This document shows, one piece after another, positions 1 to 11,400 of a DNA stretch of 11,400 bases (its first letter is position 1; each line of letters opens with the position of its first letter). The position numbers were made by a program, and so were the translations under genes. The notes under the pieces were generated by a model. It had not been told where the DNA came from. It searched no databases and saw only the letters and a program-made list of their open reading frames with translations. Source of the DNA: a virus (lineage: Duplodnaviria; Heunggongvirae; Uroviricota; Caudoviricetes); the IMG/VR virus record IMGVR_UViG_2654587571_000016; one strand, given 5' to 3'.

Positions 1-696
1 GCCTTCATCAGTGGTAAGGCACCGGAAATCAAACCCTCGCCCGGCGGCAACACGCCATCGGGTCCGTCTGCAGATACGTCCGTTCGCACAATCTCCCTGC
101 TGCCGGCAGCCGGAGAGGCTGCTGCGCAGGGCTGGAGCATTAAGGATGGCGGAATTCAGTTGTCAGATGGTGTATTTAAGATCACCAAGCAGAGCAATAA
201 AACCTGGTCCCTGACGCATCCGGTGGATGACGCAATTACCCTGCTGACACAGGGCGGCAGACTGACCTGTAAGTTCCGCCTGTCAGGCGCACTGACCAAC
301 AATCAGTTCGGTCTGGGAATTTATCTGTATACCGATGTAGCGTTACCTGACGTCGTGGCGATGACCGGGACTGGTAACCCGTTCCTGATGTCGTTCTTCA
401 CCCAGACCACAGACGGCAAACTGAATCTGATGCATCACAAGAAAGCAGGAAACACAAAGTTGGGCGAGTTCGGGAATTACAGTAACGACTGGCAGACGCT
501 GGAGCTGGTGTTCACCGCCAGCAGTGCCACGGTTACTCCGAAACTGAATGGAGTGGCTGGCCCGGCATTCCAGGTCATAAAAGACAGTCTGACACTGGGG
601 CTGAATGCACTGACGCTGACGGATATTACCAAAAATGCAACGTATGGCGTTGAGATAGAAAGTCTGGTGCTGGAAATAAATAGTCCTGCAGCGTAA
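1..696 (+). CDS. Hypothetical protein, 5'-truncated by the window edge (at least 231 aa); predicted beta-rich, function unknown
   Basis: Frame 1 is open from base 1 to the TAA at 694-696 (the listed ORF 160..696 is its distal part); followed 24 nt later by the gpR-like gene with a GGAGA Shine-Dalgarno. I do not recognise the family. Confidence 0.55.
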   Translation, partial: AFISGKAPEIKPSPGGNTPSGPSADTSVRTISLLPAAGEAAAQGWSIKDGGIQLSDGVFKITKQSNKTWSLTHPVDDAITLLTQGGRLTCKFRLSGALTNNQFGLGIYLYTDVALPDVVAMTGTGNPFLMSFFTQTTDGKLNLMHHKKAGNTKLGEFGNYSNDWQTLELVFTASSATVTPKLNGVAGPAFQVIKDSLTLGLNALTLTDITKNATYGVEIESLVLEINSPAA

Positions 697-719
697 GGAA
701 GAACAGGAGAGCAAAACAG

Positions 720-1187
720 ATGCTTAAGACAAACAGCCTCCGGAAGGGCATGATTCATGGGTGTCGCTGGTGTCAGGCCAACCCGGAAAAATTCACCATT
801 TTCGTGGAGAGCGGCAACATTGAAACGACCGGAGAAACGCCCTCGTTTGTTTACCGCTATCAGATGGTGATGTTTGTCATGGATTACGCCGGGGAGCTGG
901 ACGACCTCACGCTGCCGCTACTGGCGTGGTTATCCGAAAATCAGCCGCAATTGTTGCTTAATCCGGAGCGTAATCAGGACATCAAATTCTCCGCCGTTAT
1001 CAATGACGATGACAGCGCCGATCTCCTGTTTACGCTCCCTCTGCGGGAACGCGTTCGCATCACGCGCAGCAGTCAGGGGGCACCGCAGGCAGAACACCTG
1101 CAGGAGCCAAAACCCCGTCTGCCATCTTCCGAAGGCGACTGGTCGCATGTATTCCAGGATGTGACGTGGGGTGAAAGCGATGGATAA
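720..1187 (+). CDS. P2 gpR-like tail completion protein (155 aa)
   Basis: ATG at 720 with GGAGA upstream; same length as P2 R (155 aa); sits immediately upstream of S, V, W, J, I, H, G homologs; stop overlaps the next start (ATGGATAA). Confidence 0.6.
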   Translation: MLKTNSLRKGMIHGCRWCQANPEKFTIFVESGNIETTGETPSFVYRYQMVMFVMDYAGELDDLTLPLLAWLSENQPQLLLNPERNQDIKFSAVINDDDSADLLFTLPLRERVRITRSSQGAPQAEHLQEPKPRLPSSEGDWSHVFQDVTWGESDG

Positions 1188-1815
1188 GGCATTCACCCGC
1201 GTGGATGAAACCTTTGAGGCTATCCGCGACAGCCTGAATCAGCAGGCCATCAATAACATCGCCAGAAAGCTGGCACAGGATTTACGCCGCGCCCAGCAGG
1301 CGCGTATCCGGTCACAGAAAGCGCCGGACGGGACCGCGTGGACACCACGCAGACGCCGCGCAACCCGGATACAGGAGCGCATTCGCTTTATCTGGAATAA
1401 CGAAGCACGCACGCTGAAAAACTGGCATCACGACACGGGGAAATACGGGCGAACCATTACCGGGTGGGATGAGGATAAAAACAATATCCGCACGTTTTAC
1501 CGGGATGACATCGACCGCTTTCTGGAAATACGCACCCGGCGCATCAACCAGGACAGCACAAAGCGCGTCCCCATGTTCGTAAAACTGCGCACCGCCCGCT
1601 ACCTGAAAGCCCGTGCAGATGCTTCCGGTGTGACGGTGGGTTACAGCGGCGTGGCCGCACGTATTGCCCGCGTTCATCAGTTCGGTGAGCGCGATCAGGT
1701 TGCGCCGGGCATTTTCACCGATTACCCGGTACGTGAGCTGTTGGGCATCAGTCAGGCAGATGAACGCCTGATTTATAACACGGTGCTGGGCCGGATTGCG
1801 GAGGCTGTACGGTGA
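1180..1815 (+). CDS. P2 gpS-like tail completion / virion morphogenesis protein
   Basis: ATG at 1180 overlaps the upstream stop (alternative GTG at 1171); its TGA overlaps the GTG start of the gpV homolog (GTGA); position and size fit the P2 S slot, though larger than P2 S. Confidence 0.55.
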   Translation: MDKAFTRVDETFEAIRDSLNQQAINNIARKLAQDLRRAQQARIRSQKAPDGTAWTPRRRRATRIQERIRFIWNNEARTLKNWHHDTGKYGRTITGWDEDKNNIRTFYRDDIDRFLEIRTRRINQDSTKRVPMFVKLRTARYLKARADASGVTVGYSGVAARIARVHQFGERDQVAPGIFTDYPVRELLGISQADERLIYNTVLGRIAEAVR

Positions 1816-2393
1816 GCGCAGAACTCATGCGACTGCTGAGCAACATCATCCGCACTGGGATCATCTCTGAAGTTGATGAGAAGTCCTGGTGCGTGCGCGT
1901 TCGCAGCGGCGAACTGGAAACAGGCTGGTTGCGCTGGAACACCACGCGCGCGGGAGCCTTCAATGTGTGGCTGCCGCCATCACCCGGCGAACAGGTGGTA
2001 ATTGCCTGCATTGGCGGCAACCCGGAAACCGCCATGATAATTGGCAGCCTGTGGAGTGATGCCAATCCGGCCCCCGGCAAAAGCCTGAAAGAAATCGTGG
2101 TCAGCGCGCCGGATGGCGCGGTGTTCCGCTACGACGCGGACGCAGGCGCACTGAGCGCCAGCGGCATGAAAACGGCCACCCTGCAGGCATCCGTCAGTGT
2201 GACACTGGACACGCCCGTCGTGGAATGCACAGACCTTCTGAGAACGGCGACGCTTGACGTCACAAAAGGGGGAAAGATGAGCGGCAATATCACGCACAGC
2301 GGCGGCAATTTCACCTCAAACGGCATCACAGTGCATACGCATAAACACGGTGGCGTTAAAGGTGGCAGCGATTCGACAGGAGGCCCGCAGTGA
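1812..2393 (+). CDS. Baseplate assembly protein V (P2 gpV-like spike/hub)
   Basis: 193 aa; N-terminal ...NIIRTGIISEVD... and the C-terminal ...VTKGGKMSGNITHSGGNFTSNGITVHTHKHGG... block match the gpV family as I recall it; GGAGG 8 nt upstream of GTG 1812; GTGA overlap with the W homolog. Confidence 0.85.
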   Translation: MSAELMRLLSNIIRTGIISEVDEKSWCVRVRSGELETGWLRWNTTRAGAFNVWLPPSPGEQVVIACIGGNPETAMIIGSLWSDANPAPGKSLKEIVVSAPDGAVFRYDADAGALSASGMKTATLQASVSVTLDTPVVECTDLLRTATLDVTKGGKMSGNITHSGGNFTSNGITVHTHKHGGVKGGSDSTGGPQ

Positions 2394-2740
2394 CAACCCG
2401 CTACACAGGAATGAACCCGGACGGAACGGGAAACCTGAACGATATGGAGCATCTGAAACAGTCAGTCAGGGACATCCTGACCACCCCGCTGGCAAGCCGG
2501 GTTATGCGACGGGAATATGGCAGCCTTGTGCCCGATTTAATTGACGAACCCATGAATAACACCACTCGTCTGCAATGCATGAGTGCTGCCGTGATTGCGC
2601 TGACACGATGGGAACCCCGCATTGCCCTGGACGCCATCGACGTTGTCTGGAAGGCAGGAGGCCGCGCCGGGGTGACGCTGTCGGGCACTGTCATGCAGAC
2701 CATGCAGAATGTTGAATTAACCATCACGCTGAGGGAGTAA
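2390..2740 (+). CDS. Baseplate wedge protein W (P2 gpW / T4 gp25-like)
   Basis: 116 aa, the size of P2 W (115 aa); AGGAGG 7 nt upstream of GTG 2390; gp25/GPW-like sequence; directly followed by the gpJ homolog. Confidence 0.8.
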   Translation: MTTRYTGMNPDGTGNLNDMEHLKQSVRDILTTPLASRVMRREYGSLVPDLIDEPMNNTTRLQCMSAAVIALTRWEPRIALDAIDVVWKAGGRAGVTLSGTVMQTMQNVELTITLRE

Positions 2741-2743
2741 ATC

Positions 2744-3640
2744 ATGCCTGCCGTTGACCTTTCCCAGTTACCGGAACCCGCCATCATCGCGGAGCCTGAC
2801 TTTGAGGCAATTCTGGCTGACACAAAGGCCATGATGATTGCGTCCTATCCTGCCGAACAGCGTGAAGCCGTCTCCGCCGCGCTGGAGCTGGAATCGGAAC
2901 CCCTGAACGTTATCGCCCAGACAACAGCGTTTCGTGAAATGCTGTTACGCCAGCGGGTCAATGAGGGGGCACGCGCCTGCATGTTAAGCCACAGCGCCGG
3001 GACAGACCTGGACAACCTCGCGGGCAATATGAACACAAAGCGCCTGACCATCACTCCGGCAACGGATACCACCGACGCAGTGATGGAAAGTGACACCTCG
3101 CTGAGACTGCGGGCGCAGCGGGCGTACGATGGCCTGAGTGTTGCTGGCCCGTCAGGTGCATACGAGTATTTTGCCCGCAGCGCCAGCGGTCTGGTGCGTG
3201 ATGCGCGGGCTATCAGTCCGTCTCCGGCAAATGTGACGGTTTCCATCCTGTCCACTGAAGGCGACGGCACAGCAACGGAGGCGTTGCTTAATACCGTTCG
3301 CGCCGTTCTGAATGCAGAGGATACCCGCCCGGTGGCCGACCGCCTGACGGTACAGAGCGCCAGAATCGTGACATGGCGGCTGAATGCAAAACTGTACTTT
3401 TACCCCGGCCCGGAATCCGAACCTATTCTGGCGGCGGCTGAATCGTCGTTCAGGAAGTGGCTGGCTGAGCAGGGGCTTATCGGTCAGGACGTGGCGTTGT
3501 CCGCCATTGCTGCCGCACTGCATGTGCACGGTGTGCAACGCGTGGAGATAATCGAACCCACACAGAATATGGCCATCAGCGACATACAGGCGGCGCGCTG
3601 TGAGTCGTTCACCATCAGCGAAGGTGGGCGCAATGAGTAA
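2744..3640 (+). CDS. Baseplate assembly protein J (P2 gpJ-like)
   Basis: 298 aa (P2 J is about 302 aa); ATG 2744 with GAGGGAG upstream; stop overlaps the gpI start (ATGAGTAA). Confidence 0.85.
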   Translation: MPAVDLSQLPEPAIIAEPDFEAILADTKAMMIASYPAEQREAVSAALELESEPLNVIAQTTAFREMLLRQRVNEGARACMLSHSAGTDLDNLAGNMNTKRLTITPATDTTDAVMESDTSLRLRAQRAYDGLSVAGPSGAYEYFARSASGLVRDARAISPSPANVTVSILSTEGDGTATEALLNTVRAVLNAEDTRPVADRLTVQSARIVTWRLNAKLYFYPGPESEPILAAAESSFRKWLAEQGLIGQDVALSAIAAALHVHGVQRVEIIEPTQNMAISDIQAARCESFTISEGGRNE

Positions 3641-4163
3641 TTCACTGTTACCACCATCAGCCAGCAGTTTCATGCGTTGTGCCGAAGCTGTCGGAACGCG
3701 CATTACAGACATCCCGGTAGACCTCAACACGCTGTGGTCGCCGGACACCTGCCCGGTGCACCTGCTGCCTTATCTCGCCTGGGCATTTTCCGTTGACCGC
3801 TGGGATCGCAACTGGCCGGAAGAGACAAAACGACAGGTGATTCGTGATGCATGGCTGATACACCGACACAAAGGGACCATCAGCGCACTGCGCAGGGCCA
3901 TTGAGCCGCTGGGATACCTCATTCGCGTGTCTGAGTGGTGGGAGTTCGGCGGAGAACCGGGAACATTTACCGTTGAAGTCGGCACACTGGACAGTGGCGT
4001 GACGGAGGAAATGTATCTGGAAATGGAGCGGTTGATTGCTGATGCCCGTCCGGTCAGCCGCCACATGACAGGGCTGAATATCATTCAGGAAATTCCGGGG
4101 GATATTTTTGCAGCGGCGGCAACTCATGACGGTGAAGTTATTACCATTTATCCGGACGATTAA
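3633..4163 (+). CDS. Tail/baseplate protein I (P2 gpI-like)
   Basis: 176 aa when started at ATG 3633 (the upstream in-frame ATG 3600 lies inside gpJ and is unlikely); AAGGTGG Shine-Dalgarno; same size as P2 I; stop 2 nt before the gpH start. Confidence 0.8.
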
Positions 4164-4165
4164 GC

Positions 4166-6298
4166 ATGAGTACCACAACACGAAAATTTAAAACCGTTAT
4201 CACCGATACAGGTGCCAAAAAATTAGCTCAGGCAGCCGCGCCAGATGGTAAGCCTGTCCGCCTGACTCATATGGCCGTGGGCGACGGTGGCGGCGCGTTG
4301 CCCACACCAGACAGTAAGCAGACCCGTCTGGTGCATGAGGTGTGGCGACACACTGTTAATCGCGTCATCCTGGACGCAACACATCAGAACCGCATTATTG
4401 CGGAGCTGGTTATTCCTCCAGAAACGGGCGGATTCTGGATCCGGGAAATTGGTGTTTTTGATGAGCACGGCGATTTAATCGCGGTGGGCAATACTGCCGA
4501 AAGTTACAAGCCAGCCGTTGCCGAAGGGTCCGGACGTGCACAAACATTTCGCACCATTCTGACCGTATCCAGCACTGCCACTGTGGCGCTTACCGTGGAT
4601 AACACCATGGTGATGGCCACAGTGGATTACGTGGATAACAAACTGAAAGAGCATGAACAGTCACGATGTCACCCGGATGCCTCGCTGACCGCAAAAGGCT
4701 TTGTTCAACTCAGTAGCGCCACTAACAGCGATTCTGAAACGCTGGCTGCAACGCCGAAAGCGGTTAAGGTCGCGTATGATCTTGCTAACGGAAAATATAC
4801 AGCGCAGGATGCCACAACAGCGCGAAAAGGCCTTGTCCAGCTTAGTAGTGCAACCAACAGTACATCTGAAACGCTGGCGGCAACATCAAATGCAGTAAAA
4901 GCTGCCTATGACAATGCTGAAAAACGTCTGCAGAAAGCTAAGAATGGTGAGGATATCTCTGATAAAGACACCTTTACGAAAAATATCGGTGCCTGCCGTG
5001 CATATAGTGCAGAGCTGAATATTGGTGGAGATAGTGAAGCATGGACAACTGCGCAGTTGATTTTTTGGCTAGAGAGTCAGGGGGCATTTAACCATCCTTA
5101 CTGGATGTGCAAAGGCTCATGGGCTTATGCAAATAATAAGGTCATTACAGATACAGGTTGCGGAAGTATTTGTCTTGCAGGTGCTGTTGTGGAAGTTATT
5201 GGCACCCGCGGCGCAATGACCATACGCATTACCACACCGAGTACATCCAGCGGTGAAGGCATCCCTAATGCTCAATTTACTTATATTAATCATGGTGATG
5301 CTTATGCTCCTGGCTGGCGAAGGGACTATAACTCCAGGAATAAGCCAACAGCATCAGAGATCGGGGCGTTACCGTCAGATGGGACAGCAGTATCGTCAGT
5401 TAATCTGGCTTCAAAAGGTCGGCTGACCGCCCTGACAGATAATATGCAGGGGGCCACAGGTCTGGAGTTATACGAGGCGTATAACAACGGATATCCAACA
5501 ACGTATGGAAATATCATTCACCTGAAAGGGATGACAGCCGTTGGCGAAGGCGAATTACTCATCGGCTGGAGTGGTATAAGCGGTGCTCATGCTCCGGCAT
5601 TTATTCGTTCACGACGGGATACGCCCGACGCAAACTGGTCGCCGTGGGCGCAGCTTTACACCTCGGCTCATCCTCCTGAAGAGTTTTATCCAGTCGGTGC
5701 ACCGATTCCGTGGCCATCAGATACCGTTCCGTCTGGTTATGCCCTGATGCAGGGGCAGACTTTTGACAAATCTGCATACCCGAAACTTGCAGTCGCTTAT
5801 CCGTCAGGCGTTATTCCTGATATGCGTGGCTGGACGATTAAGGGCAAGCCCGGCAGTGGTCGTGCCGTATTGTCTCAGGAACAGGACGGCATTAAATCGC
5901 ACACCCACAGCGCCAGCGCATCCAGTACGGATTTGGGGACGAAAACCACATCGTCGTTTGATTACGGTACTAAAACGACCAGTTCATTTGATTACGGCAC
6001 AAAAACTACGAATAGCGCTGGAAATCATTCACACAATATACCTGTTGGTCACACTGGCGCGGGGAATGGTGTATCAGCCGGTTATAACGCTGCGTTAGGT
6101 ACTGGTACCACGTCGAGCGCAGGCGAGCATGCTCACAATGTATATATCGGTGCCCATAACCACACTATCGGCATTGGTGCTCATGCCCATTCTGTCATTA
6201 TTGGTCCCCACGGACACACCATCACCGTTAACGCTACGGGTAACGAAGAAAACACCGTAAAAAACATCGCATTTAACTATATTGTGAGGCTTGCATAA
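4166..6298 (+). CDS. Tail fiber protein (P2 gpH-like N-terminus and repeat region, His-rich receptor-binding C-terminus)
   Basis: 710 aa; the N-terminus (..[45 protein letters not shown]..) and the duplicated ..[21 protein letters not shown].. block match P2 H as I recall it; C-terminus carries repeated HxH motifs (HSHN, EHAHN, AHNH, AHAHS, HGH). Confidence 0.9.
4694..4912 (+). repeat. Diverged internal direct duplication in the tail-fiber gene (two ~87-nt copies, 4694-4780 and 4826-4912)
   Basis: Protein repeats [29 protein letters not shown] / [29 protein letters not shown]; the DNA copies are clearly related but diverged. Confidence 0.7.
5936..6016 (+). repeat. 30-nt tandem repeat, about 2.7 copies, encoding [10 protein letters not shown] units within the tail-fiber gene
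   Basis: Read directly: gggacgaaaaccacatcgtcgtttgattac / ggtactaaaacgaccagttcatttgattac / ggcacaaaaactacgaatagc. Confidence 0.8.
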
Positions 6299-6876
6299 TG
6301 ACATTCAGAATGAGTGAACACTCACGGACCATAAAAATTTATAATCTACTGACCGGAACCAATGAGTTTATTGGTGAAGGTGATGCATACATTCCACCTC
6401 ATACAGGTCTGCCTGCAAACAGTACCGATATTGCCCCGCCAGATATTCCGGCTGGCTTCGTGGCCGTTTTCAACAGTGATGAGGCATCGTGGCATCTCGT
6501 TGAAGACCATCGGGGTAAAACGGTTTATGACGTGGCATCAGGGGACTCGTTATTTATTTCTGAACTCGGTCCATTACCGGAAAATGTTACCTGGTTGTCG
6601 CCGTATGGAGAGTATCAGAAGTGGAACGGCACATCCTGGGTGAAAGATGCAGAAGCAGAAAAACTGTTTCGGATAAGGGAGGCGGAAGAAACAAAAAACA
6701 GCCTGATGCAGGTAGCCAGCGAGCATATTGCGCCACTTCAGGATGCCGTAGATTTGGATATTGCAACGGAGGAAGAGGCATCGTTACTGGCTGCATGGAA
6801 GACATACCGGGTATTGTTGAATCGTGTTAATACAGCGGTAGCAGCGGATGTTGAGTGGCCAGTCGCCCCACAATAA
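6298..6876 (+). CDS. Tail fiber assembly chaperone (Tfa; P2 gpG / lambda Tfa family)
   Basis: 192 aa; C-terminal ..[39 protein letters not shown].. is the Tfa signature as I recall it; start overlaps the gpH stop (TAATG). Confidence 0.85.
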
Positions 6877-6882
6877 AGAGAA

Positions 6883-6912
6883 AAAGCCATCGATTGAAAT
6901 ATAGATGGCTTT
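6883..6912. terminator. Hairpin between convergent genes (possible bidirectional terminator, better for the minus-strand transcript)
   Basis: aaagccatc-N12-gatggcttt, 9-bp stem; on the minus strand it is followed by a TTTTTCTCT run; lies 7-8 nt from both stop codons. Confidence 0.3.
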
Positions 6913-6919
6913 ATGTACT

Positions 6920-7492
6920 CTATTTATACAATACAACACCGCTCTTTTTAGTTATATATGTGCAGTTCGATGGTATATCTTTATTTATAAAAGACATTGC
7001 ACCTATTTTTACATTATCCCCAATTTTACGTGATAATCCAATGATGCAACAATTAGCTCCGATATCAACGTTACTACCAATTTTTACTCTTGAACCAGGC
7101 ATGTCACCATCTATCTGTCCAATGGTAGTATTCTGTCGTAACACCAGATTTTCACCAGCATCAACAGCAAAATGAACAACAATTCCAGCATGATGGGGAA
7201 TTGTTAACCCTTTTCCAATATTTGCGCCCAATCCAATTTCACAACCAAATTTGTTAATTATTTTACTGTTTAACTTTTTGGCTGCTTTCTTATGTAATTT
7301 ATTACCATTAATATACATTTCGTTAGCCAACCGCCACCAGAAAAGGAAATTCCGGTTACGCTGTTTTTTCTCTCTTAAAAGCCTCCAGATATCCATACGT
7401 TTCCGCCGAATTACTTCATATTTCCAGAAGTTTTTTAAATTAGTAGAGTCCCCAAATAAAACAAAGTGAATTGCCATTAAGTAAGACAGCAC
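6920..7492 (-). CDS. Hexapeptide-repeat acetyltransferase (WcaB/CysE/WbbJ-like left-handed beta-helix O-acetyltransferase); low-GC cargo gene
   Basis: Hexapeptide signature ..GCEIGLGANIGKGLTIPHHAGIVVHFAVDAGENLVLRQNTTIG..IGSNVDIGANCCIIG..; by inspection much lower GC than the flanking tail genes. Start uncertain: GTG 7492 has GGAGA 5 nt upstream; alternatives are ATG 7477 and the longest-ORF GTG 7525. Confidence 0.75.
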   Translation of the reverse strand: MLSYLMAIHFVLFGDSTNLKNFWKYEVIRRKRMDIWRLLREKKQRNRNFLFWWRLANEMYINGNKLHKKAAKKLNSKIINKFGCEIGLGANIGKGLTIPHHAGIVVHFAVDAGENLVLRQNTTIGQIDGDMPGSRVKIGSNVDIGANCCIIGLSRKIGDNVKIGAMSFINKDIPSNCTYITKKSGVVLYK

Positions 7493-7648
7493 GATAATCT
7501 CCTTAATTATTATTTCAGACCACACATATTATAAGGTTAAGAGATTATAAAATCCTGTTGTTTGTTATTCAAAAACAATTTTCTGAGAAGGACATACAAC
7601 AGCAAGTCGCCAGTCACCTTCATCAGGAAATTGGCGACATACGTTAAA

Positions 7649-8143
7649 TCAGAGCAGCCCCTTAACTGAGCTGGTCGCGCTATTAAGGGATGATGTCACC
7701 TTATCTTTGAAGCCGGACAACATATCGCTGAACGATGAGGATTGCAGGCGCTCCCGCAAATCCTCATCACAGCGTTCAAGAGTCAGTGAAAATTCTATCT
7801 TTTTCGCCTTACCGTAGCGATCAAACTCGGAGCGGGTCGTATTCGTTTCGGTCAGGACATACATGCCGTAAATCTGCCCGACGCCATCAATCAGAGGCCA
7901 GGGCCGTCCTGTATACGCCTGCGTGGTCAGCAGAGACAGCGACACTTCGCCACCTGTAATTTCAGGATAAAGCACACCAGAAAGAACGATGCGATCATCA
8001 CCTGCACCGATATACTGCCAGCTTGCTGAACGGTTAACGCGTTCATTTTTCACATGCCGCCAGCTTTTGTTTTGCTGTAACTGCTGATGCGGCAGCGTGC
8101 GCAGCTCAAAAACAAACATGCCATAGATCATCATCATGGCCAT
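7649..8143 (-). CDS. P2 gpU-like tail protein, orphan and in inverted orientation relative to the tail operon
   Basis: 164 aa; N-terminal MMMIYGMFVFELRTLP..WRH...RVNR and ..WPLIDGVGQIYGMYVLTE..IEFSLTLER resemble the gpU family from memory; normal GC, flanked by low-GC DNA. Confidence 0.6.
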   Translation of the reverse strand: MAMMMIYGMFVFELRTLPHQQLQQNKSWRHVKNERVNRSASWQYIGAGDDRIVLSGVLYPEITGGEVSLSLLTTQAYTGRPWPLIDGVGQIYGMYVLTETNTTRSEFDRYGKAKKIEFSLTLERCDEDLRERLQSSSFSDMLSGFKDKVTSSLNSATSSVKGLL

Positions 8144-8205
8144 GACTCCTCAATCTTTATCGTAAAAGTTTCAATGCTTTTTCCTGCGGAGGTAAGGGAT
8201 ATGTA

Positions 8206-8508
8206 GTGTTCAGTTGGCTGAGAACTTCAACAATTATCAGACGTTTTATACGGACACTAATTAAGATCCCAGCTAACAGGATGTTCAATACCCTTCTGTA
8301 TTTTTTCTTCACAAAGGCCGAAAATACATATTCATCCCCTGAGTGGTGGGACAGGCTCAGTGATAAACAGCGAGAGAATATCGGCAACATGATTATGTCA
8401 GGGGTTGAATTTTTTGGCAGACCTACATCACAGGTTGATCATTCCGTTGATTATAACGCCGCTGCACTTGAAGAGATAACATGCAGCAACAACGAAATTT
8501 GCAGCTGA
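8206..8508 (+). CDS. Hypothetical small protein (75-100 aa), low GC, unknown function
   Basis: ORF with a GTG start at 8206 (GGAGG about 14 nt upstream) or ATG at 8281; no recognisable family; weak translation signals, so it may not be expressed. Confidence 0.3.
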   Translation: MFSWLRTSTIIRRFIRTLIKIPANRMFNTLLYFFFTKAENTYSSPEWWDRLSDKQRENIGNMIMSGVEFFGRPTSQVDHSVDYNAAALEEITCSNNEICS

Positions 8509-8738
8509 ATGTTTACATGCTGTTAGAAAAAGCGGGCTGAACAATCATTTCGGGATTGTAACAGATAAGATGGCACTGCCCGCTTGCTTCCCGATATGCA
8601 CCTCAGCCAATAAACTTATGTAAGCAACCGATTTCCATTTATGCGGAGGTTATCAAAGTTGTTGGAGTTGCGAACTTCCGCTCTTCGCACAAAGCGTACC
8701 GCTAGGTTTGATTGTATTCTGGCTGCGCAAACTGTCAG

Positions 8739-8767
8739 TTGGAGTCTGAGCTATTACAACTTAGAAT
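8739..8767 (+). promoter_or_regulatory. Candidate sigma70 promoter for the ogr-like gene
   Basis: TTGGAG (8739-8744), 17-nt spacer, TAGAAT (8762-8767); about 30 nt upstream of ATG 8798. Confidence 0.25.
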
Positions 8768-8797
8768 AGCGGCAGCACCACGTTAAGGGAGGTCGCT

Positions 8798-9058
8798 ATG
8801 TTCCGTTGTCCGCTTTGTGGCGCATCTGCCCGAATCCGCACCAGTCGTCCGGAAAACGATTCAAACACTGTGCGGCAAAAGTATTACCAGTGTAACAACC
8901 TGGAATGCGGCGTATGCTTCTCAACACTGGAAGCTTTCCATAAATTCACATCAAAACACGCCTCCGGCGTTCACTCTTCGGAAGGTATCCCGTGGCATGA
9001 GCTGCCAGCTTCACACAGGGGAAACAATCAGATGAGTTTGCCTTTACCTCAGAATTAA
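8798..9058 (+). CDS. ogr: Ogr/Delta-family zinc-finger late transcription activator (P2 Ogr-like, with C-terminal extension)
   Basis: MFRCPLCGASARIRTSR...YYQCNNLEC: the CxxC...CxxxxC zinc-finger layout and MF.CPLC start of Ogr/Delta; strong Shine-Dalgarno (AAGGGAGG); 86 aa against about 72 aa for P2 Ogr. Confidence 0.8.
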   Translation: MFRCPLCGASARIRTSRPENDSNTVRQKYYQCNNLECGVCFSTLEAFHKFTSKHASGVHSSEGIPWHELPASHRGNNQMSLPLPQN

Positions 9059-9067
9059 CAGGCAGAA

Positions 9068-9096
9068 TTGCCGGAGTAACAAAAAAACGATAGATT
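9068..9096 (+). promoter_or_regulatory. Candidate promoter for the hok mRNA (long structured leader expected)
   Basis: TTGCCG (9068-9073), 17-nt spacer, TAGATT (9091-9096), about 150 nt upstream of the hok ATG, in line with the long leaders of hok-family mRNAs. Confidence 0.2.
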
Positions 9097-9248
9097 ACCC
9101 GCGGGTGCCTTTCGGCTGATGGTCGGAGGAATACCCGAAGGCCGGATGTGGAAAGGCCCCGGAAAACATTTCTGTTTAACCGAGGCCCTAACATATCTAC
9201 CTTAAGCAAGTGATAGGTTAGCGCCTCTCCAACAAAGGAGCAAGCGCT

Positions 9249-9389
9249 ATGTCGCAAAAATCGCTTACAGCCATCACGTTCTGCGTGACGGTAATCCTCA
9301 TCATCTGGATGCTACACGGTTCGCTGTGTGAAATACGGATGAGCTTCTGGGGAGCGGAGTTTGCGGCGTTCTTACAGTGTAAGCAGTAA
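9249..9389 (+). CDS. hok: Hok/Gef-family type I toxin (46 aa membrane peptide)
   Basis: MSQKSLTAITFCVTVILIIWMLHGSLCEIRMSFWGAEFAAFLQCKQ: hydrophobic N-terminal helix followed by the conserved SLCEIR...AAF(L/M) motif shared with HokA/HokC as I recall them; AAAGGAG Shine-Dalgarno 8 nt upstream; missed by the 60-aa ORF track. Confidence 0.8.
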   Translation: MSQKSLTAITFCVTVILIIWMLHGSLCEIRMSFWGAEFAAFLQCKQ

Positions 9390-9398
9390 GGAAACCGC

Positions 9399-9420
9399 GA
9401 CGGGGGAGCAATCCCCCGTC
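9399..9420 (+). other. GC-rich perfect hairpin in the hok 3' UTR (possible mRNA stability or fold-back element)
   Basis: gacggggga-gcaa-tcccccgtc: 9-bp perfect stem, 4-nt loop, no U-run after it. Confidence 0.4.
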
Positions 9421-9475
9421 AATCGGTTGCTAAGGTTGGCTGAAGTGGCACCCTATCTCACAGACATGAACAACA

Positions 9476-9509
9476 AACCCGCAGCGTAAGAACTGCGGGT
9501 TTTCTTTTT
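9476..9509 (+). terminator. Intrinsic terminator of the hok transcript (possibly bidirectional)
   Basis: cccgcag-cgtaagaa-ctgcggg followed by TTTTCTTTTT. Confidence 0.6.
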
Positions 9510-9577
9510 GGAACAATCACTAGCTAGTGTACCGTTAACGGCACATAATGCTCGCACAACAAACCTGTTAAAAGAGA

Positions 9578-9859
9578 TTACTCAGCATTCTCCTGCTTCC
9601 ATTGCCGGATCATTTCATCGGTAACATCACCCTCATAACATACCACGTCATACCCTCCATTACGGCTATATGCACTGCGTCCACCACATCTACTACCATT
9701 CCTTGCATGATTATAAGGACACGCACAATTGCCTGGATAAGATTCAATGGATTCTTTAATTATTTCTTTTTTGATCTGAGCATCAGACTTTCCTGTTGCT
9801 GCATATCCACTAAAAGATACTAAACAAAGGCAGATTGCCATTAATAAACCACATCGCAT
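9578..9859 (-). CDS. Small secreted cysteine-rich protein of unknown function (about 93 aa, predicted signal peptide)
   Basis: Taking ATG 9859 gives MRCGLLMAICLCLVSFSGYA|ATG..., a signal-peptide-like N-terminus; mature part holds 5 Cys (..PGNCACPYNHARNGSRCGGRSAYSRNGGYDVVCYEGD..). The longest ORF runs to 9973 (TTG/ATG) but that extension is non-hydrophobic and lacks a Shine-Dalgarno. Confidence 0.5.
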   Translation of the reverse strand: MRCGLLMAICLCLVSFSGYAATGKSDAQIKKEIIKESIESYPGNCACPYNHARNGSRCGGRSAYSRNGGYDVVCYEGDVTDEMIRQWKQENAE

Positions 9860-10140
9860 ACCGATACACTCTATTACTAACCAATCATAGCCCACATCAT
9901 AAAATCGAGATGAGGAGTACAATACCTTTAACAAGAAGGTGTCATAACGATAATATGTCGTGCAATTCATCAAAAAAAAGATCTATATCAAAGAGATAGA
10001 ACTCTTATCAGTGCTTCAGACATCGGCATTCGAGGCAGCAGAAAAACAGTAAATCTGACGAATTTGCCTTTTCCCAAGATGTTGTCAGATTAAAAAGATA
10101 GATTAGCGCAGGTACCTGTTGGTGGATTGCAGGAGGAAAA

Positions 10141-10245
10141 ATGAAGTCGAGTGAAAAAATCCCAGAAAAATTTTTGTTTAACAGAGGTCCTGGTTCACTA
10201 TGCGAAATACGGAGGAGCTGCAGAAGAATTCTGCTTCATCCTTAG
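10141..10245 (+). pseudogene. Decayed hok-like paralog (34-codon ORF retaining the SLCEIR motif but lacking the transmembrane segment)
   Basis: MKSSEKIPEKFLFNRGPGSLCEIRRSCRRILLHP; DNA homology to the intact hok both in the coding region (ggttcactatgcgaaatacgga vs ggttcgctgtgtgaaatacgga) and upstream (gatagattagcgca vs gataggttagcgcc); AGGAGG Shine-Dalgarno retained. Confidence 0.4.
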
Positions 10246-10329
10246 AGTTTAAACAGCACGTGCACTACCATTGTTTCTGCATATCGCCACACCATCGCCA
10301 CTCTACCGCCATTGCACAAAATACAAATA

Positions 10330-10355
10330 CGAAAAAACCACCCGAAGGTGGTTTC
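10330..10355 (-). terminator. Intrinsic terminator of the glyW-cysT-leuZ tRNA operon
   Basis: On the minus strand: aaaccacc-ttcg-ggtggttt hairpin followed by a TTTTTT run, about 40 nt after the leuZ 3' end. Confidence 0.6.
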
Positions 10356-10397
10356 ACGACACTGCTTATTGCTTTGATTTTATTCTTATCTTTCCCA

Positions 10398-10484
10398 TGG
10401 TACCCGGAGCGGGACTTGAACCCGCACAGCGCGAACGCCGAGGGATTTTAAATCCCTTGTGTCTACCGATTCCACCATCCGGGC
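10398..10484 (-). tRNA. leuZ: tRNA-Leu (anticodon UAA)
   Basis: The reverse complement matches E. coli tRNA-Leu(UAA) as I recall it (GCCCGGATGGTGGAATCGGTAGACACAAGGGATTTAAAATCCC...GGGTACCA), 87 nt including CCA. Confidence 0.95.
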
Positions 10485-10496
10485 TCGGGAAGAAAG

Positions 10497-10570
10497 TGGA
10501 GGCGCGTTCCGGAGTCGAACCGGACTAGACGGATTTGCAATCCGCTACATAACCGCTTTGTTAACGCGCC
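10497..10570 (-). tRNA. cysT: tRNA-Cys (anticodon GCA)
   Basis: The reverse complement matches E. coli tRNA-Cys as I recall it (GGCGCGTTAACAAAGCGGTTATGTAGCGGATTGCAAATCCG...CTCCA), 74 nt. Confidence 0.95.
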
Positions 10571-10624
10571 AAATTCTTCAGGCCTTTCAGCCAGACATCC
10601 GCTTGACGCCGATGTCTTTTAAAC

Positions 10625-10700
<76 letters not shown>

Positions 10701-10773
10701 ATTCATCAAGCAATCAGTTAATCACTTGATTTTATTATCGTCTGGCAATCAGTGCCGCCGTTCGATGCGTTGC

Positions 10774-10801
10774 ATTCTACTTACCTGGCGCGATGAGTCA
10801 A
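10774..10801 (-). promoter_or_regulatory. Candidate sigma70 promoter of the tRNA operon
   Basis: On the minus strand: TTGACT (10796-10801), 16-nt spacer, TAGAAT (10774-10779), with an AT-rich UP-like stretch further upstream; about 70 nt upstream of the glyW 5' end. Confidence 0.35.
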
Positions 10802-10851
10802 CGATATTTTTCACCACTTTTGATCGTTTGCTGAAAATTACGCCGAAACGA

Positions 10852-11400
10852 TCACTGATCAAGCAAATCTGCACGCGCAGCGCTCAAATATTGCAACATT
10901 GACCACAGAGTCAGTACCGCAGCCACAAAGAAAAGTGCAATACCGGCGTACTCAACCCAAATGTTCGGACGCCACAGCAGCCATGCCAACGCCACCATCT
11001 GGGCAGTGGTTTTCACTTTCCCAATCCAGGAGACGGCCACGCTACTGCGTTTACCCAACTCCGCCATCCATTCGCGTAGCGCAGAAATAATAATTTCACG
11101 GGCGATCATCGTTGCCGCCGGTAATGTCACCCACCAGCTGTGATAATGCTCGGTTACCAGCACCATGGCGATAGCCACGAGAACTTTATCTGCCACAGGG
11201 TCAAGGAAAGCACCAAACCGGGTACTCTGGTTCCAGCGGCGTGCCAGAAAACCATCGAACCAGTCAGTCACCGCCGCGACGCAGAAAATGAGCGCGGCGG
11301 CAAACGGCGACCAGGTGACAGGCAGATAAAAGACCAATACAAAGAATGGGATAAGGATGACACGGAACAGTGTAAGCAACGTAGGGATATTAAATTGCAT
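10852..11400 (-). CDS. pgsA: CDP-diacylglycerol--glycerol-3-phosphate 3-phosphatidyltransferase (phosphatidylglycerophosphate synthase)
   Basis: 182-aa [33 protein letters not shown]... with the CDP-alcohol phosphotransferase motif (DGFLAR..G..LDPVADK); the start codon is the last three bases of the window. Confidence 0.95.

Follow-up and report, generated by a model that had tools for sequence, protein, structure and literature searches.

A probable deletion scar beside ogr in a P88-like prophage retains the 3' end of a SEC-C gene homologous to Rugutis

We analysed positions 8144–8797 of an 11,400-nt stretch of viral DNA (the whole stretch is called the window below), a segment that lies between the tail gene gpU and the late-gene activator gene ogr. 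The segment is best explained as the scar of a deletion in a P88-like (P2-type) prophage, now defective, that is integrated beside tRNA-Leu/pgsA, and the open reading frame within it as a promoterless, 5'-truncated, non-functional pseudogene fragment of a Rugutis-type gene; we give this explanation as a whole a probability of about 90%. The evidence consists of sequence identities on both sides of a junction, a reading frame continuous with the end of a longer gene, the loss of that gene's N-terminal motif, and homology between the intact parent gene and Rugutis. The working part of the segment is likely to be only about 8739–8797, which holds the promoter and leader of ogr. The segment is thus an ordinary pseudogene and deletion scar, together with a promoter of a known kind.

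Make-up of the segment and its inverted repeat

Both flanking genes named in the first-pass annotation, gpU and ogr, were confirmed by Pfam (Table 1), and gpU was 97.5% identical to that of phage P88. A megablast search with the region, covering 5,426 complete E. coli genomes, divided the sequence in two. From position 8168 onward, identity was 100% in many E. coli genomes, under a gene annotated as 'YecA family protein' or 'SEC-C domain-containing protein'; in P88-like phages (Xuanwuvirus), the match stopped at 8167, under 'tail protein' or 'tail tape measure protein'. As a reference we used the 40 kb around the match in E. coli O103 RM8385 (L003), which contains a complete P2-type prophage adjoining tRNA-Leu/Cys/Gly and pgsA. 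The left part of this prophage carries tail fibre genes (+), a serine O-acetyltransferase gene (a moron, -), and then U, the tape measure, GpE, a tail protein, tube and sheath (-); the right part carries the late control gene D (+), the YecA-family gene (+, 1140 nt), ogr (+, annotated 'ogr/Delta-like zinc finger family protein') and hok/gef (+). The gpU gene of the window corresponds to L003 11969–12457/12463.

Table 1. Features in and around the segment, in window coordinates
Feature	Positions	Strand	Basis
gpU tail gene, intact	7649..8143	-	Pfam Phage_P2_GpU, 5.5e-39
End of tape-measure gene T, last 18 nt (F-Y-D-K-D-stop)	8150..8167	-	Alignment with L003
Proposed deletion junction	8167..8168		blastn of window against L003
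3' stump of Rugutis-like SEC-C cargo gene, probable pseudogene fragment	8168..8508	+	Identity to end of WP_001317900.1 gene
Cargo-module 3' flank	8509..8757	+	Homology to copies in other islands
Inverted repeat, arms 8530-8537 / 8578-8585	8530..8585	+	Within cargo 3' flank
Probable ogr promoter	8739..8767	+	Alignment with P2 NC_001895 signals
Phage-backbone ogr leader with Shine-Dalgarno	8758..8797	+	Identity to phage P88
ogr late-gene activator gene, intact	8798..9058	+	Pfam Ogr_Delta, 5.1e-14

The low GC content reported for the segment was borne out, with 43.3% across 8144–8797 compared with 54.2% in the structural genes (1–6876) and 50.5% in gpU. In the reference prophage, the YecA-family gene has 41.3% GC and the whole interval between D and ogr 42.5%, compared with 53.4% for D itself. 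The segment is low in GC because the gene stump and its 3' flank are horizontally acquired cargo (41–45% GC) set in a backbone of 53–54% GC. The cargo gene recurs, together with about 330 bp upstream and 70–250 bp downstream, at 83–85% nucleotide identity in Salmonella, Citrobacter, Pantoea and another E. coli island. Homology of the flank crosses the stop codon and reaches window positions 8574–8655, extending to 8757 in the E. coli island (L015). By these alignments, the 3' flank accompanies the SEC-C gene from one genomic island to another, unrelated one, as part of a transferable DNA module.

The inverted repeat that had been noted in this flank is present (left arm AAGCGGGC, right arm GCCCGCTT). 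We regard it as unlikely that the repeat works as an RNA element at the 3' end of the cargo gene, whether as a stem that stabilises the transcript or as a weak terminator that shields ogr from read-through. In favour of such an element, the repeat begins 22 nt past the stop codon, its flank has stayed with the gene in four further genomic settings, and in the Citrobacter copy, inspected by eye, a different perfect 8-bp pair (AGGGGGGC/GCCCCCCT) occurs with its register moved slightly. In an alignment of five diverged copies, 79.5% of cells were paired, compared with 46–56% when the partner was slid, but the same level was matched by 191 of 500 shuffles in a set of only five sequences, with the structure derived from one of them. 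The RNAalifold consensus of the five copies favours other pairs and is weak (-9.5 kcal/mol), and the minimum-free-energy fold of 8505–8610 (z = -1.8) likewise leaves the reported pairing unused. In the window sequence itself the repeat does not exceed chance: among 1000 dinucleotide-preserving shuffles, 40% gave one or more perfect 8-mer inverted repeats with a 3–60 nt loop, and 11 inverted-repeat pairs of at least 8 nt occur within the region. The arms are separated by a 40-nt 'loop' and followed by GCTTCCCGAT, with no T-run; a terminator scan called nothing here, and the repeat does not have the make-up of a Rho-independent terminator. Rfam searches of the whole window (gathering thresholds) and of 8000–9600 (E ≤ 1) gave no match within 8144–8797, sok being the sole match in 8000–9600. 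The repeat accompanies cargo copies that have no ogr nearby and is missing from P88-like phages that have ogr without the cargo, which argues against a role in ogr control. At most, it forms a weak stem in the 3' untranslated region of the cargo gene.

The junction and the deleted interval

Alignment of the window with the reference prophage by blastn gave two collinear blocks: window 1–8167 matched L003 4321–12487 with one mismatch, and window 8168–11400 matched L003 20001–23233 with five mismatches, all in pgsA. The intervening L003 12488–20000 (7,513 bp) is missing from the window. The join is blunt, with 0 bp of microhomology, and neither alignment extends one base further. The missing interval contains the tape-measure gene (gene T, L003 12470–15277(-), 2808 nt) apart from the 18 nt that remain, GpE/E', a tail protein, the tube, the sheath, all of D, and the first 799 nt of the cargo gene. 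Since each breakpoint falls in a gene of which the window has only a truncated form, the arrangement containing the 7.5 kb must be the ancestral one. A single 7,513-bp deletion would then have joined codon 268 of the cargo gene to the 18 nt that survive from the end of the tape-measure gene. The first-pass annotation had described a divergent region between the gpU-like and ogr-like genes; the two genes are indeed neighbours in the window, but their juxtaposition would itself be a product of the 7.5-kb deletion, which the word 'divergent' hides.

None of the 5,426 complete E. coli genomes contained the junction as one piece, and a junction-spanning 38-mer had no match in GTDB representative genomes, in IMG/VR or in the JGI metagenomes. 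The deletion is therefore known from a single sequence. Absence of the 38-mer from every collection searched would also be expected if the join were an assembly error or an artificial one, and the real genome carried an intact tail module and cargo gene. The blunt join without microhomology fits that possibility as well, as do flanks that are 99.8–99.99% identical to an intact prophage. We nevertheless judge an artefact to be quite improbable. Mis-assemblies normally occur at repeats, and neither breakpoint has one; both flanks come from one prophage, with order and orientation kept, as a simple deletion predicts; deletions of this kind are a common route of prophage decay; and the cargo gene has been independently broken in other strains too. 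With flanks from the same prophage in order, almost no divergence and no repeat at the breakpoints, the simplest reading of the alignments is a recent, strain-private deletion. A deletion mediated by an insertion sequence (IS) was considered and rejected: the window contains no IS, and the ISVsa5 insertion of O111 lies at another position. The identity of each piece is the same whether the deletion is real or an artefact.

Because the tape measure, tube, sheath and D are all missing, the prophage is probably defective and unable to make tails. The gpU gene has been cut off from the sheath-operon genes that precede it, and its promoter has presumably been lost with them. The ogr and hok/sok genes are still intact.

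The truncated open reading frame and its parent gene

The open reading frame reported in the segment is present, running from GTG 8206 or ATG 8281 to 8508 (100 or 75 aa). The stump to which it belongs shows 100% identity with the 3' end of a 1140-nt gene that is annotated in 80 complete E. coli genomes, and the frame is therefore a real coding sequence and not a chance one. Window 8170–8505 corresponds, in frame, to the last 112 of the gene's 379 codons, followed by the stop codon at 8506–8508. Both proposed starts are internal codons of the parent gene, GTG 8206 for Val and ATG 8281 for Met. The frame is open back to 8146, with no start codon before 8206, and the sequence upstream of the junction is antisense to gpU. 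A promoter scan found no sigma-70-like site on the plus strand upstream of the frame, the sole plus-strand site lying inside it. The stump gave no hits in Pfam, NCBIfam, PADLOC or PHROGs, and an antisense frame at 8157–8390 gave no family hit either. The stump is, on this sequence evidence, probably unexpressed.

It is highly improbable that the frame is an independent, expressed small gene, either a regulator or a neo-functionalised C-terminal fragment. The frame is open for 100 aa with a Shine-Dalgarno-like AAGGGA 7 nt upstream of GTG 8206, so a read-through transcript could give a translated fragment of that length. An exact-protein look-up of the 100-aa form returned no record. Two public assemblies do list a gene for the identical 75-aa form (8281–8508), but both calls are gene-caller artefacts of a broken gene: one is in a full-length gene with a Q194* nonsense mutation, and the other is on a 595-bp contig. 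In the listed homologues, the segment is almost always the end of a protein of 366–400 aa, the few shorter ones being partial. With antisense gpU sequence before 8168, no promoter-like site upstream on the plus strand, no start codon of its own, and neither a family match nor a DNA-binding domain in the four libraries, the proposal of a small regulatory protein is not supported. The other suggestion, a remnant of gene D, is dismissed outright: D lies immediately upstream of ogr in P2 proper, but D of the intact relative (L003 17702–18802) falls wholly inside the deleted interval, the stump belongs to the next gene downstream and is 100% identical to that different gene, and it gives no Phage_GPD hit. 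Nor does the frame come from an unrecognised family, as had been stated, since the parent gene encodes an annotated SEC-C/'YecA family' protein that is a Rugutis homologue.

The parent is a 379-aa protein (WP_001317900.1, 'YecA family protein') with a SEC-C motif at aa 10–27 (Pfam PF02810, 2e-08). No other known domain was found in Pfam, NCBIfam, PADLOC or PHROGs, and the PADLOC 'E2' and PDC-S12 hits cover the SEC-C motif only. We detected 296 homologues, mostly gammaproteobacterial and nearly all of 366–400 aa. Residues that are invariant in the family include C53, C63, H71, H88, C123, H126 and D127, which lie N-terminal of the break; S282, W283, E318, N319, P324, W326 and W327 lie in the retained part. 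An AlphaFold2 model of the parent was confident (mean pLDDT 88.3, pTM 0.87). Foldseek searches with this model against PDB and BFVD returned no match at E ≤ 0.001, and a profile search of PDB sequences returned SEC-C peptides only.

About 80 of the 5,426 complete E. coli genomes, mostly of O26/O103/O111-type strains, carry the intact gene. Inactivation of this gene is seen by three routes, namely the deletion in the window, an ISVsa5 insertion (O111:H11), and the Q194* nonsense mutation in another strain. Outside these prophages, the gene has an AAA_15 and DUF4435 (PARIS-like) pair as its neighbour in Salmonella, within an integrase/AlpA/DUF927 island; in Citrobacter it is placed among RES/HEPN genes, and other copies are in small islands or phage-like DNA. 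These contexts are consistent with a role in defence.

Relationship of the parent gene to Rugutis

Rugutis is a single-gene Abi-like antiphage system of lactococcal plasmids (NAR 2024, PMC11381338). It consists of pUCCL633_059, a 359-aa protein with an N-terminal SEC-C motif and a confident AF2 model that has no PDB match (PMC11381338). In phage c2, the mutations that allow escape from Rugutis map to the large terminase (PNAS 2025, PMC12184496), apparently the trigger of the system, and expression of the large terminase is toxic in Rugutis-carrying cells, a behaviour resembling abortive infection (PMC12184496). A tblastn search of plasmids with the parent protein matched Lactococcus plasmids, including pUCCL633A of strain UCCL633, which encodes a 359-aa SEC-C protein (WP_137016746.1). 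The parent aligned with this protein by BLASTP at E = 2e-37, with 26% identity over 358 aa, and the parent profile aligned with it by hhalign at a probability of 99.95% (E = 1e-38, 329 columns). We equated WP_137016746.1 with pUCCL633_059 by strain and plasmid name, length and motif rather than by a published accession, and the comparison rests on that match. The alignments identify the parent as a full-length homologue of Rugutis.

The two proteins are alike in several respects. Homology runs end to end, from the N-terminal SEC-C motif through a fold of about 340 aa without a PDB neighbour, and includes the shared blocks AH(T/S)I, TFTGFCxxHD, (F/A)WL and EN..(S/N)P..W. The parent, too, is found on mobile DNA next to defence or toxin genes (the PARIS-like pair in Salmonella, RES/HEPN in Citrobacter). 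They differ in that the parent is gammaproteobacterial and prophage-borne, not plasmid-borne, and antiphage activity is known only for the lactococcal Rugutis. We infer from this comparison that the intact E. coli gene is a candidate antiphage defence gene.

The window itself keeps only the last 112 of 379 codons. Looked at for the marks of a Rugutis-type protein, the stump has no SEC-C motif (PF02810), falls short of the full length of about 360–380 aa, and has none of the N-terminal invariant Cys, His and Asp residues; the upstream region of the gene is gone as well. With these parts lost, the stump cannot be a working Rugutis member. Aligned alone, it matches Rugutis residues 257–336 (E = 5e-4), and as this is the only part left, it is a fragment of a member and not a member.

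A broader proposal can be made, tentatively and at somewhat short of even odds. The intact WP_001317900.1 gene may be a working Rugutis-type abortive-infection gene carried in a cargo slot between D and ogr of P88-like prophages. Its repeated independent inactivation would then reflect a fitness cost, and the stump in the window would be what is left of a defence gene that disappeared along with the tail genes.

The ogr promoter and the D–ogr cargo slot

The last part of the segment has the features of an ogr control region. A -35 element, TTGGAG (8739–8744), is separated by a 17-nt spacer from a -10 element, TAGAAT (8762–8767), and the annotated ogr minus_35_signal (TTG) and minus_10_signal (TAAAATG) of P2 (NC_001895) align column for column with these hexamers. 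TAGAAT is kept in P88 and 500465-2, and TTGGAG or TTGGAA is found in the cargo-bearing phages 520873 and 500465-2. The candidate has 8/12 consensus matches, under the 9/12 cut-off of the promoter scanner. A strong Shine-Dalgarno sequence (AAGGGAGG, 8785–8792) ends 5 nt before ATG 8798. The interval 8758–8797 aligns over 40/40 nt, at 97.5% identity, with the sequence directly after the D stop codon in phage P88. About 330 further E. coli genomes share just the last 40–63 nt of the region, which mark these nucleotides as the conserved ogr leader. Position and conservation of the -35, -10 and Shine-Dalgarno elements thus agree with those of an ogr promoter and leader, and TTGGAG-17-TAGAAT, assigned by positional homology, is probably the active ogr promoter. 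The suggestion that the segment is a control region for ogr therefore holds for the last 60 bp or so, with the P2-aligned -35/-10 and the Shine-Dalgarno sequence, and not for the inverted repeat. The fold of the leader (8670–8840) was unremarkable (z = +0.13). A long-range pairing of 8688–8699 with 8808–8819, proposed by a repeat finder, was dropped, no unusual structure being seen in that fold.

Compared with the P2 ogr promoter, the -35 TTG, the -10 (TAAAAT in P2, TAGAAT here), the Shine-Dalgarno sequence and the ATG are in register, and the -10 lies 31–36 nt before the ATG in the window and 34–40 nt before it in P2. The arrangement differs in that the promoter region of P2 and P88 abuts or overlaps the end of D, whereas in the window the -35 half lies at the right end of the inserted cargo module and D has been deleted.

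Comparison of related phages shows that the D–ogr interval is a variable cargo slot, with 8168–8757 as low-GC cargo and 8758–8797 as phage backbone. P88 has no cargo, its D stop codon lying 2 nt before the equivalent of 8758, and it is 97.5% identical to the window from that point through ogr; in phages 520873 and 500465-2 the interval is occupied by other genes. A comparable remnant is the cryptic P2 prophage of E. coli K-12, which carries ogrK with a gpD fragment, yegZ. There, too, an ogr homologue has been kept beside a truncated neighbour gene after prophage decay; the stump in K-12 is of D, whereas the window has a cargo stump and no D, and the integration site is another one.

P2-like prophages have accessory and defence hotspots at Z/fun, at tin/old near cos, and at others (Rousset et al. 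2022, PMC9122126; NAR 2026, PMC13586616). The D–ogr slot resembles these in being a fixed position between backbone genes that holds different low-GC cargo in each relative, the SEC-C gene in the RM8385 lineage. It differs in its location, between D and ogr of P88-like (Xuanwuvirus/Gemsvirus) phages, a position not named in the hotspot paper (PMC13586616), where 'ogr' and 'gpD' have 0 occurrences each.

For annotation, these results mean that the open reading frame should be recorded as part of a pseudogene and not as a gene for a small protein. The segment provides an example of how a deletion can produce a false 'divergent intergenic region' with a plausible-looking small open reading frame. 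Demonstration of a variable D–ogr cargo slot in P88-like phages is of modest value, as is the tie between an E. coli 'YecA family/SEC-C' prophage gene and the experimentally validated Rugutis. That tie places a homologue in E. coli, a genetically tractable host for a Rugutis-type system.

Sequence elements between the cargo gene and ogr

The 8-bp direct repeat GTTGGAGT occurs twice ahead of ogr (see the table below). One copy is part of the cargo module's conserved 3' end (GTTGGAGTTGCGAAC, which also occurs in the module copies of Citrobacter and of the E. coli island), and the second sits in pre-ogr sequence common to the cargo-bearing phages (CAGTTGGAGTCTGAG). The repeat may mark a point at which cargo is exchanged by recombination, or may have arisen by chance. 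The best sigma-70 promoter-like match in the area is located on the minus strand, within a 33-nt stretch that is absent from 520873 and 500465-2, two P88-like phages with other genes between D and ogr. This site faces away from ogr, and is directed antisense into the stump of the Rugutis-like (SEC-C) cargo gene and towards gpU, which has presumably lost its own promoter.

Features of the window and inactivated copies of the Rugutis-like gene
Feature	Location	Strand	Details
IS009 (RF02111) match	window 6641-6839	+	strong; 192 bits vs gathering score 117
Hexapeptide-repeat acetyltransferase gene	window 6920-7525	-	34% GC (very low)
Direct repeat GTTGGAGT	window 8661-8668, 8738-8745
Promoter-like site	window 8738-8711	-	CTGACA-16-TACAAT; 10/12 consensus
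sok (RF01794) match	window 9103-9259		46.7 bits, below gathering score 59; E = 6.7e-09
Hok/Gef toxin ORF	window 9249-9389		PF01848, 3.7e-07
Low-GC ORF	window 9578-9973	-	35-40% GC; between hok and tRNA-Leu
Inactivation 1	window 8168		7.5-kb deletion
Inactivation 2	L002 (E. coli O111:H11 88.0502) 3864-6341		ISVsa5 (IS4-like) insertion, in O111:H11 strains
Inactivation 3	L008 (GCA_054597135.1) 5089-6228		single C580T, giving Q194*

Other low-GC genes and RNA-family matches

The acetyltransferase gene, annotated as "serine O-acetyltransferase" in E. coli O103 RM8385, which carries the intact prophage, has gpU on one side and the tail-fibre assembly gene on the other. It appears to be a second cargo gene, or moron, and its location resembles that of the Z/fun slot in P2. 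The low-GC ORF beyond hok corresponds to a 93-aa hypothetical protein in the RM8385 annotation (L003 21411-21692); its product, signal-peptide-like at the N-terminus, contains several cysteines and gave no significant match in a Pfam search. Immediately 3' of ogr, window positions 9103-9389 hold a hok/sok-type toxin-antitoxin module, annotated in P88-like phages as "MokW-like host killing". Because the Rfam IS009 match falls within the tail-fibre assembly gene (6298-6876), the "sRNA" family coincides at this locus with coding sequence of the prophage.

Copies of the Rugutis-like gene in other genomes

A copy of the SEC-C gene with 86% identity was present in Salmonella Typhimurium (GCA_008101965.1; L011 13548-15694), on a small island with integrase, AlpA and DUF927 genes. 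A pair of AAA_15/AAA_21 and DUF4435 genes, the same domain pair as in the PARIS defence system, is located about 4.4 kb away from this copy.

The Rugutis-like gene has been inactivated by three independent routes in different strains: deletion, insertion of an IS element and a point mutation. Such repeated loss could reflect a cost of carriage, or merely relaxed selection.
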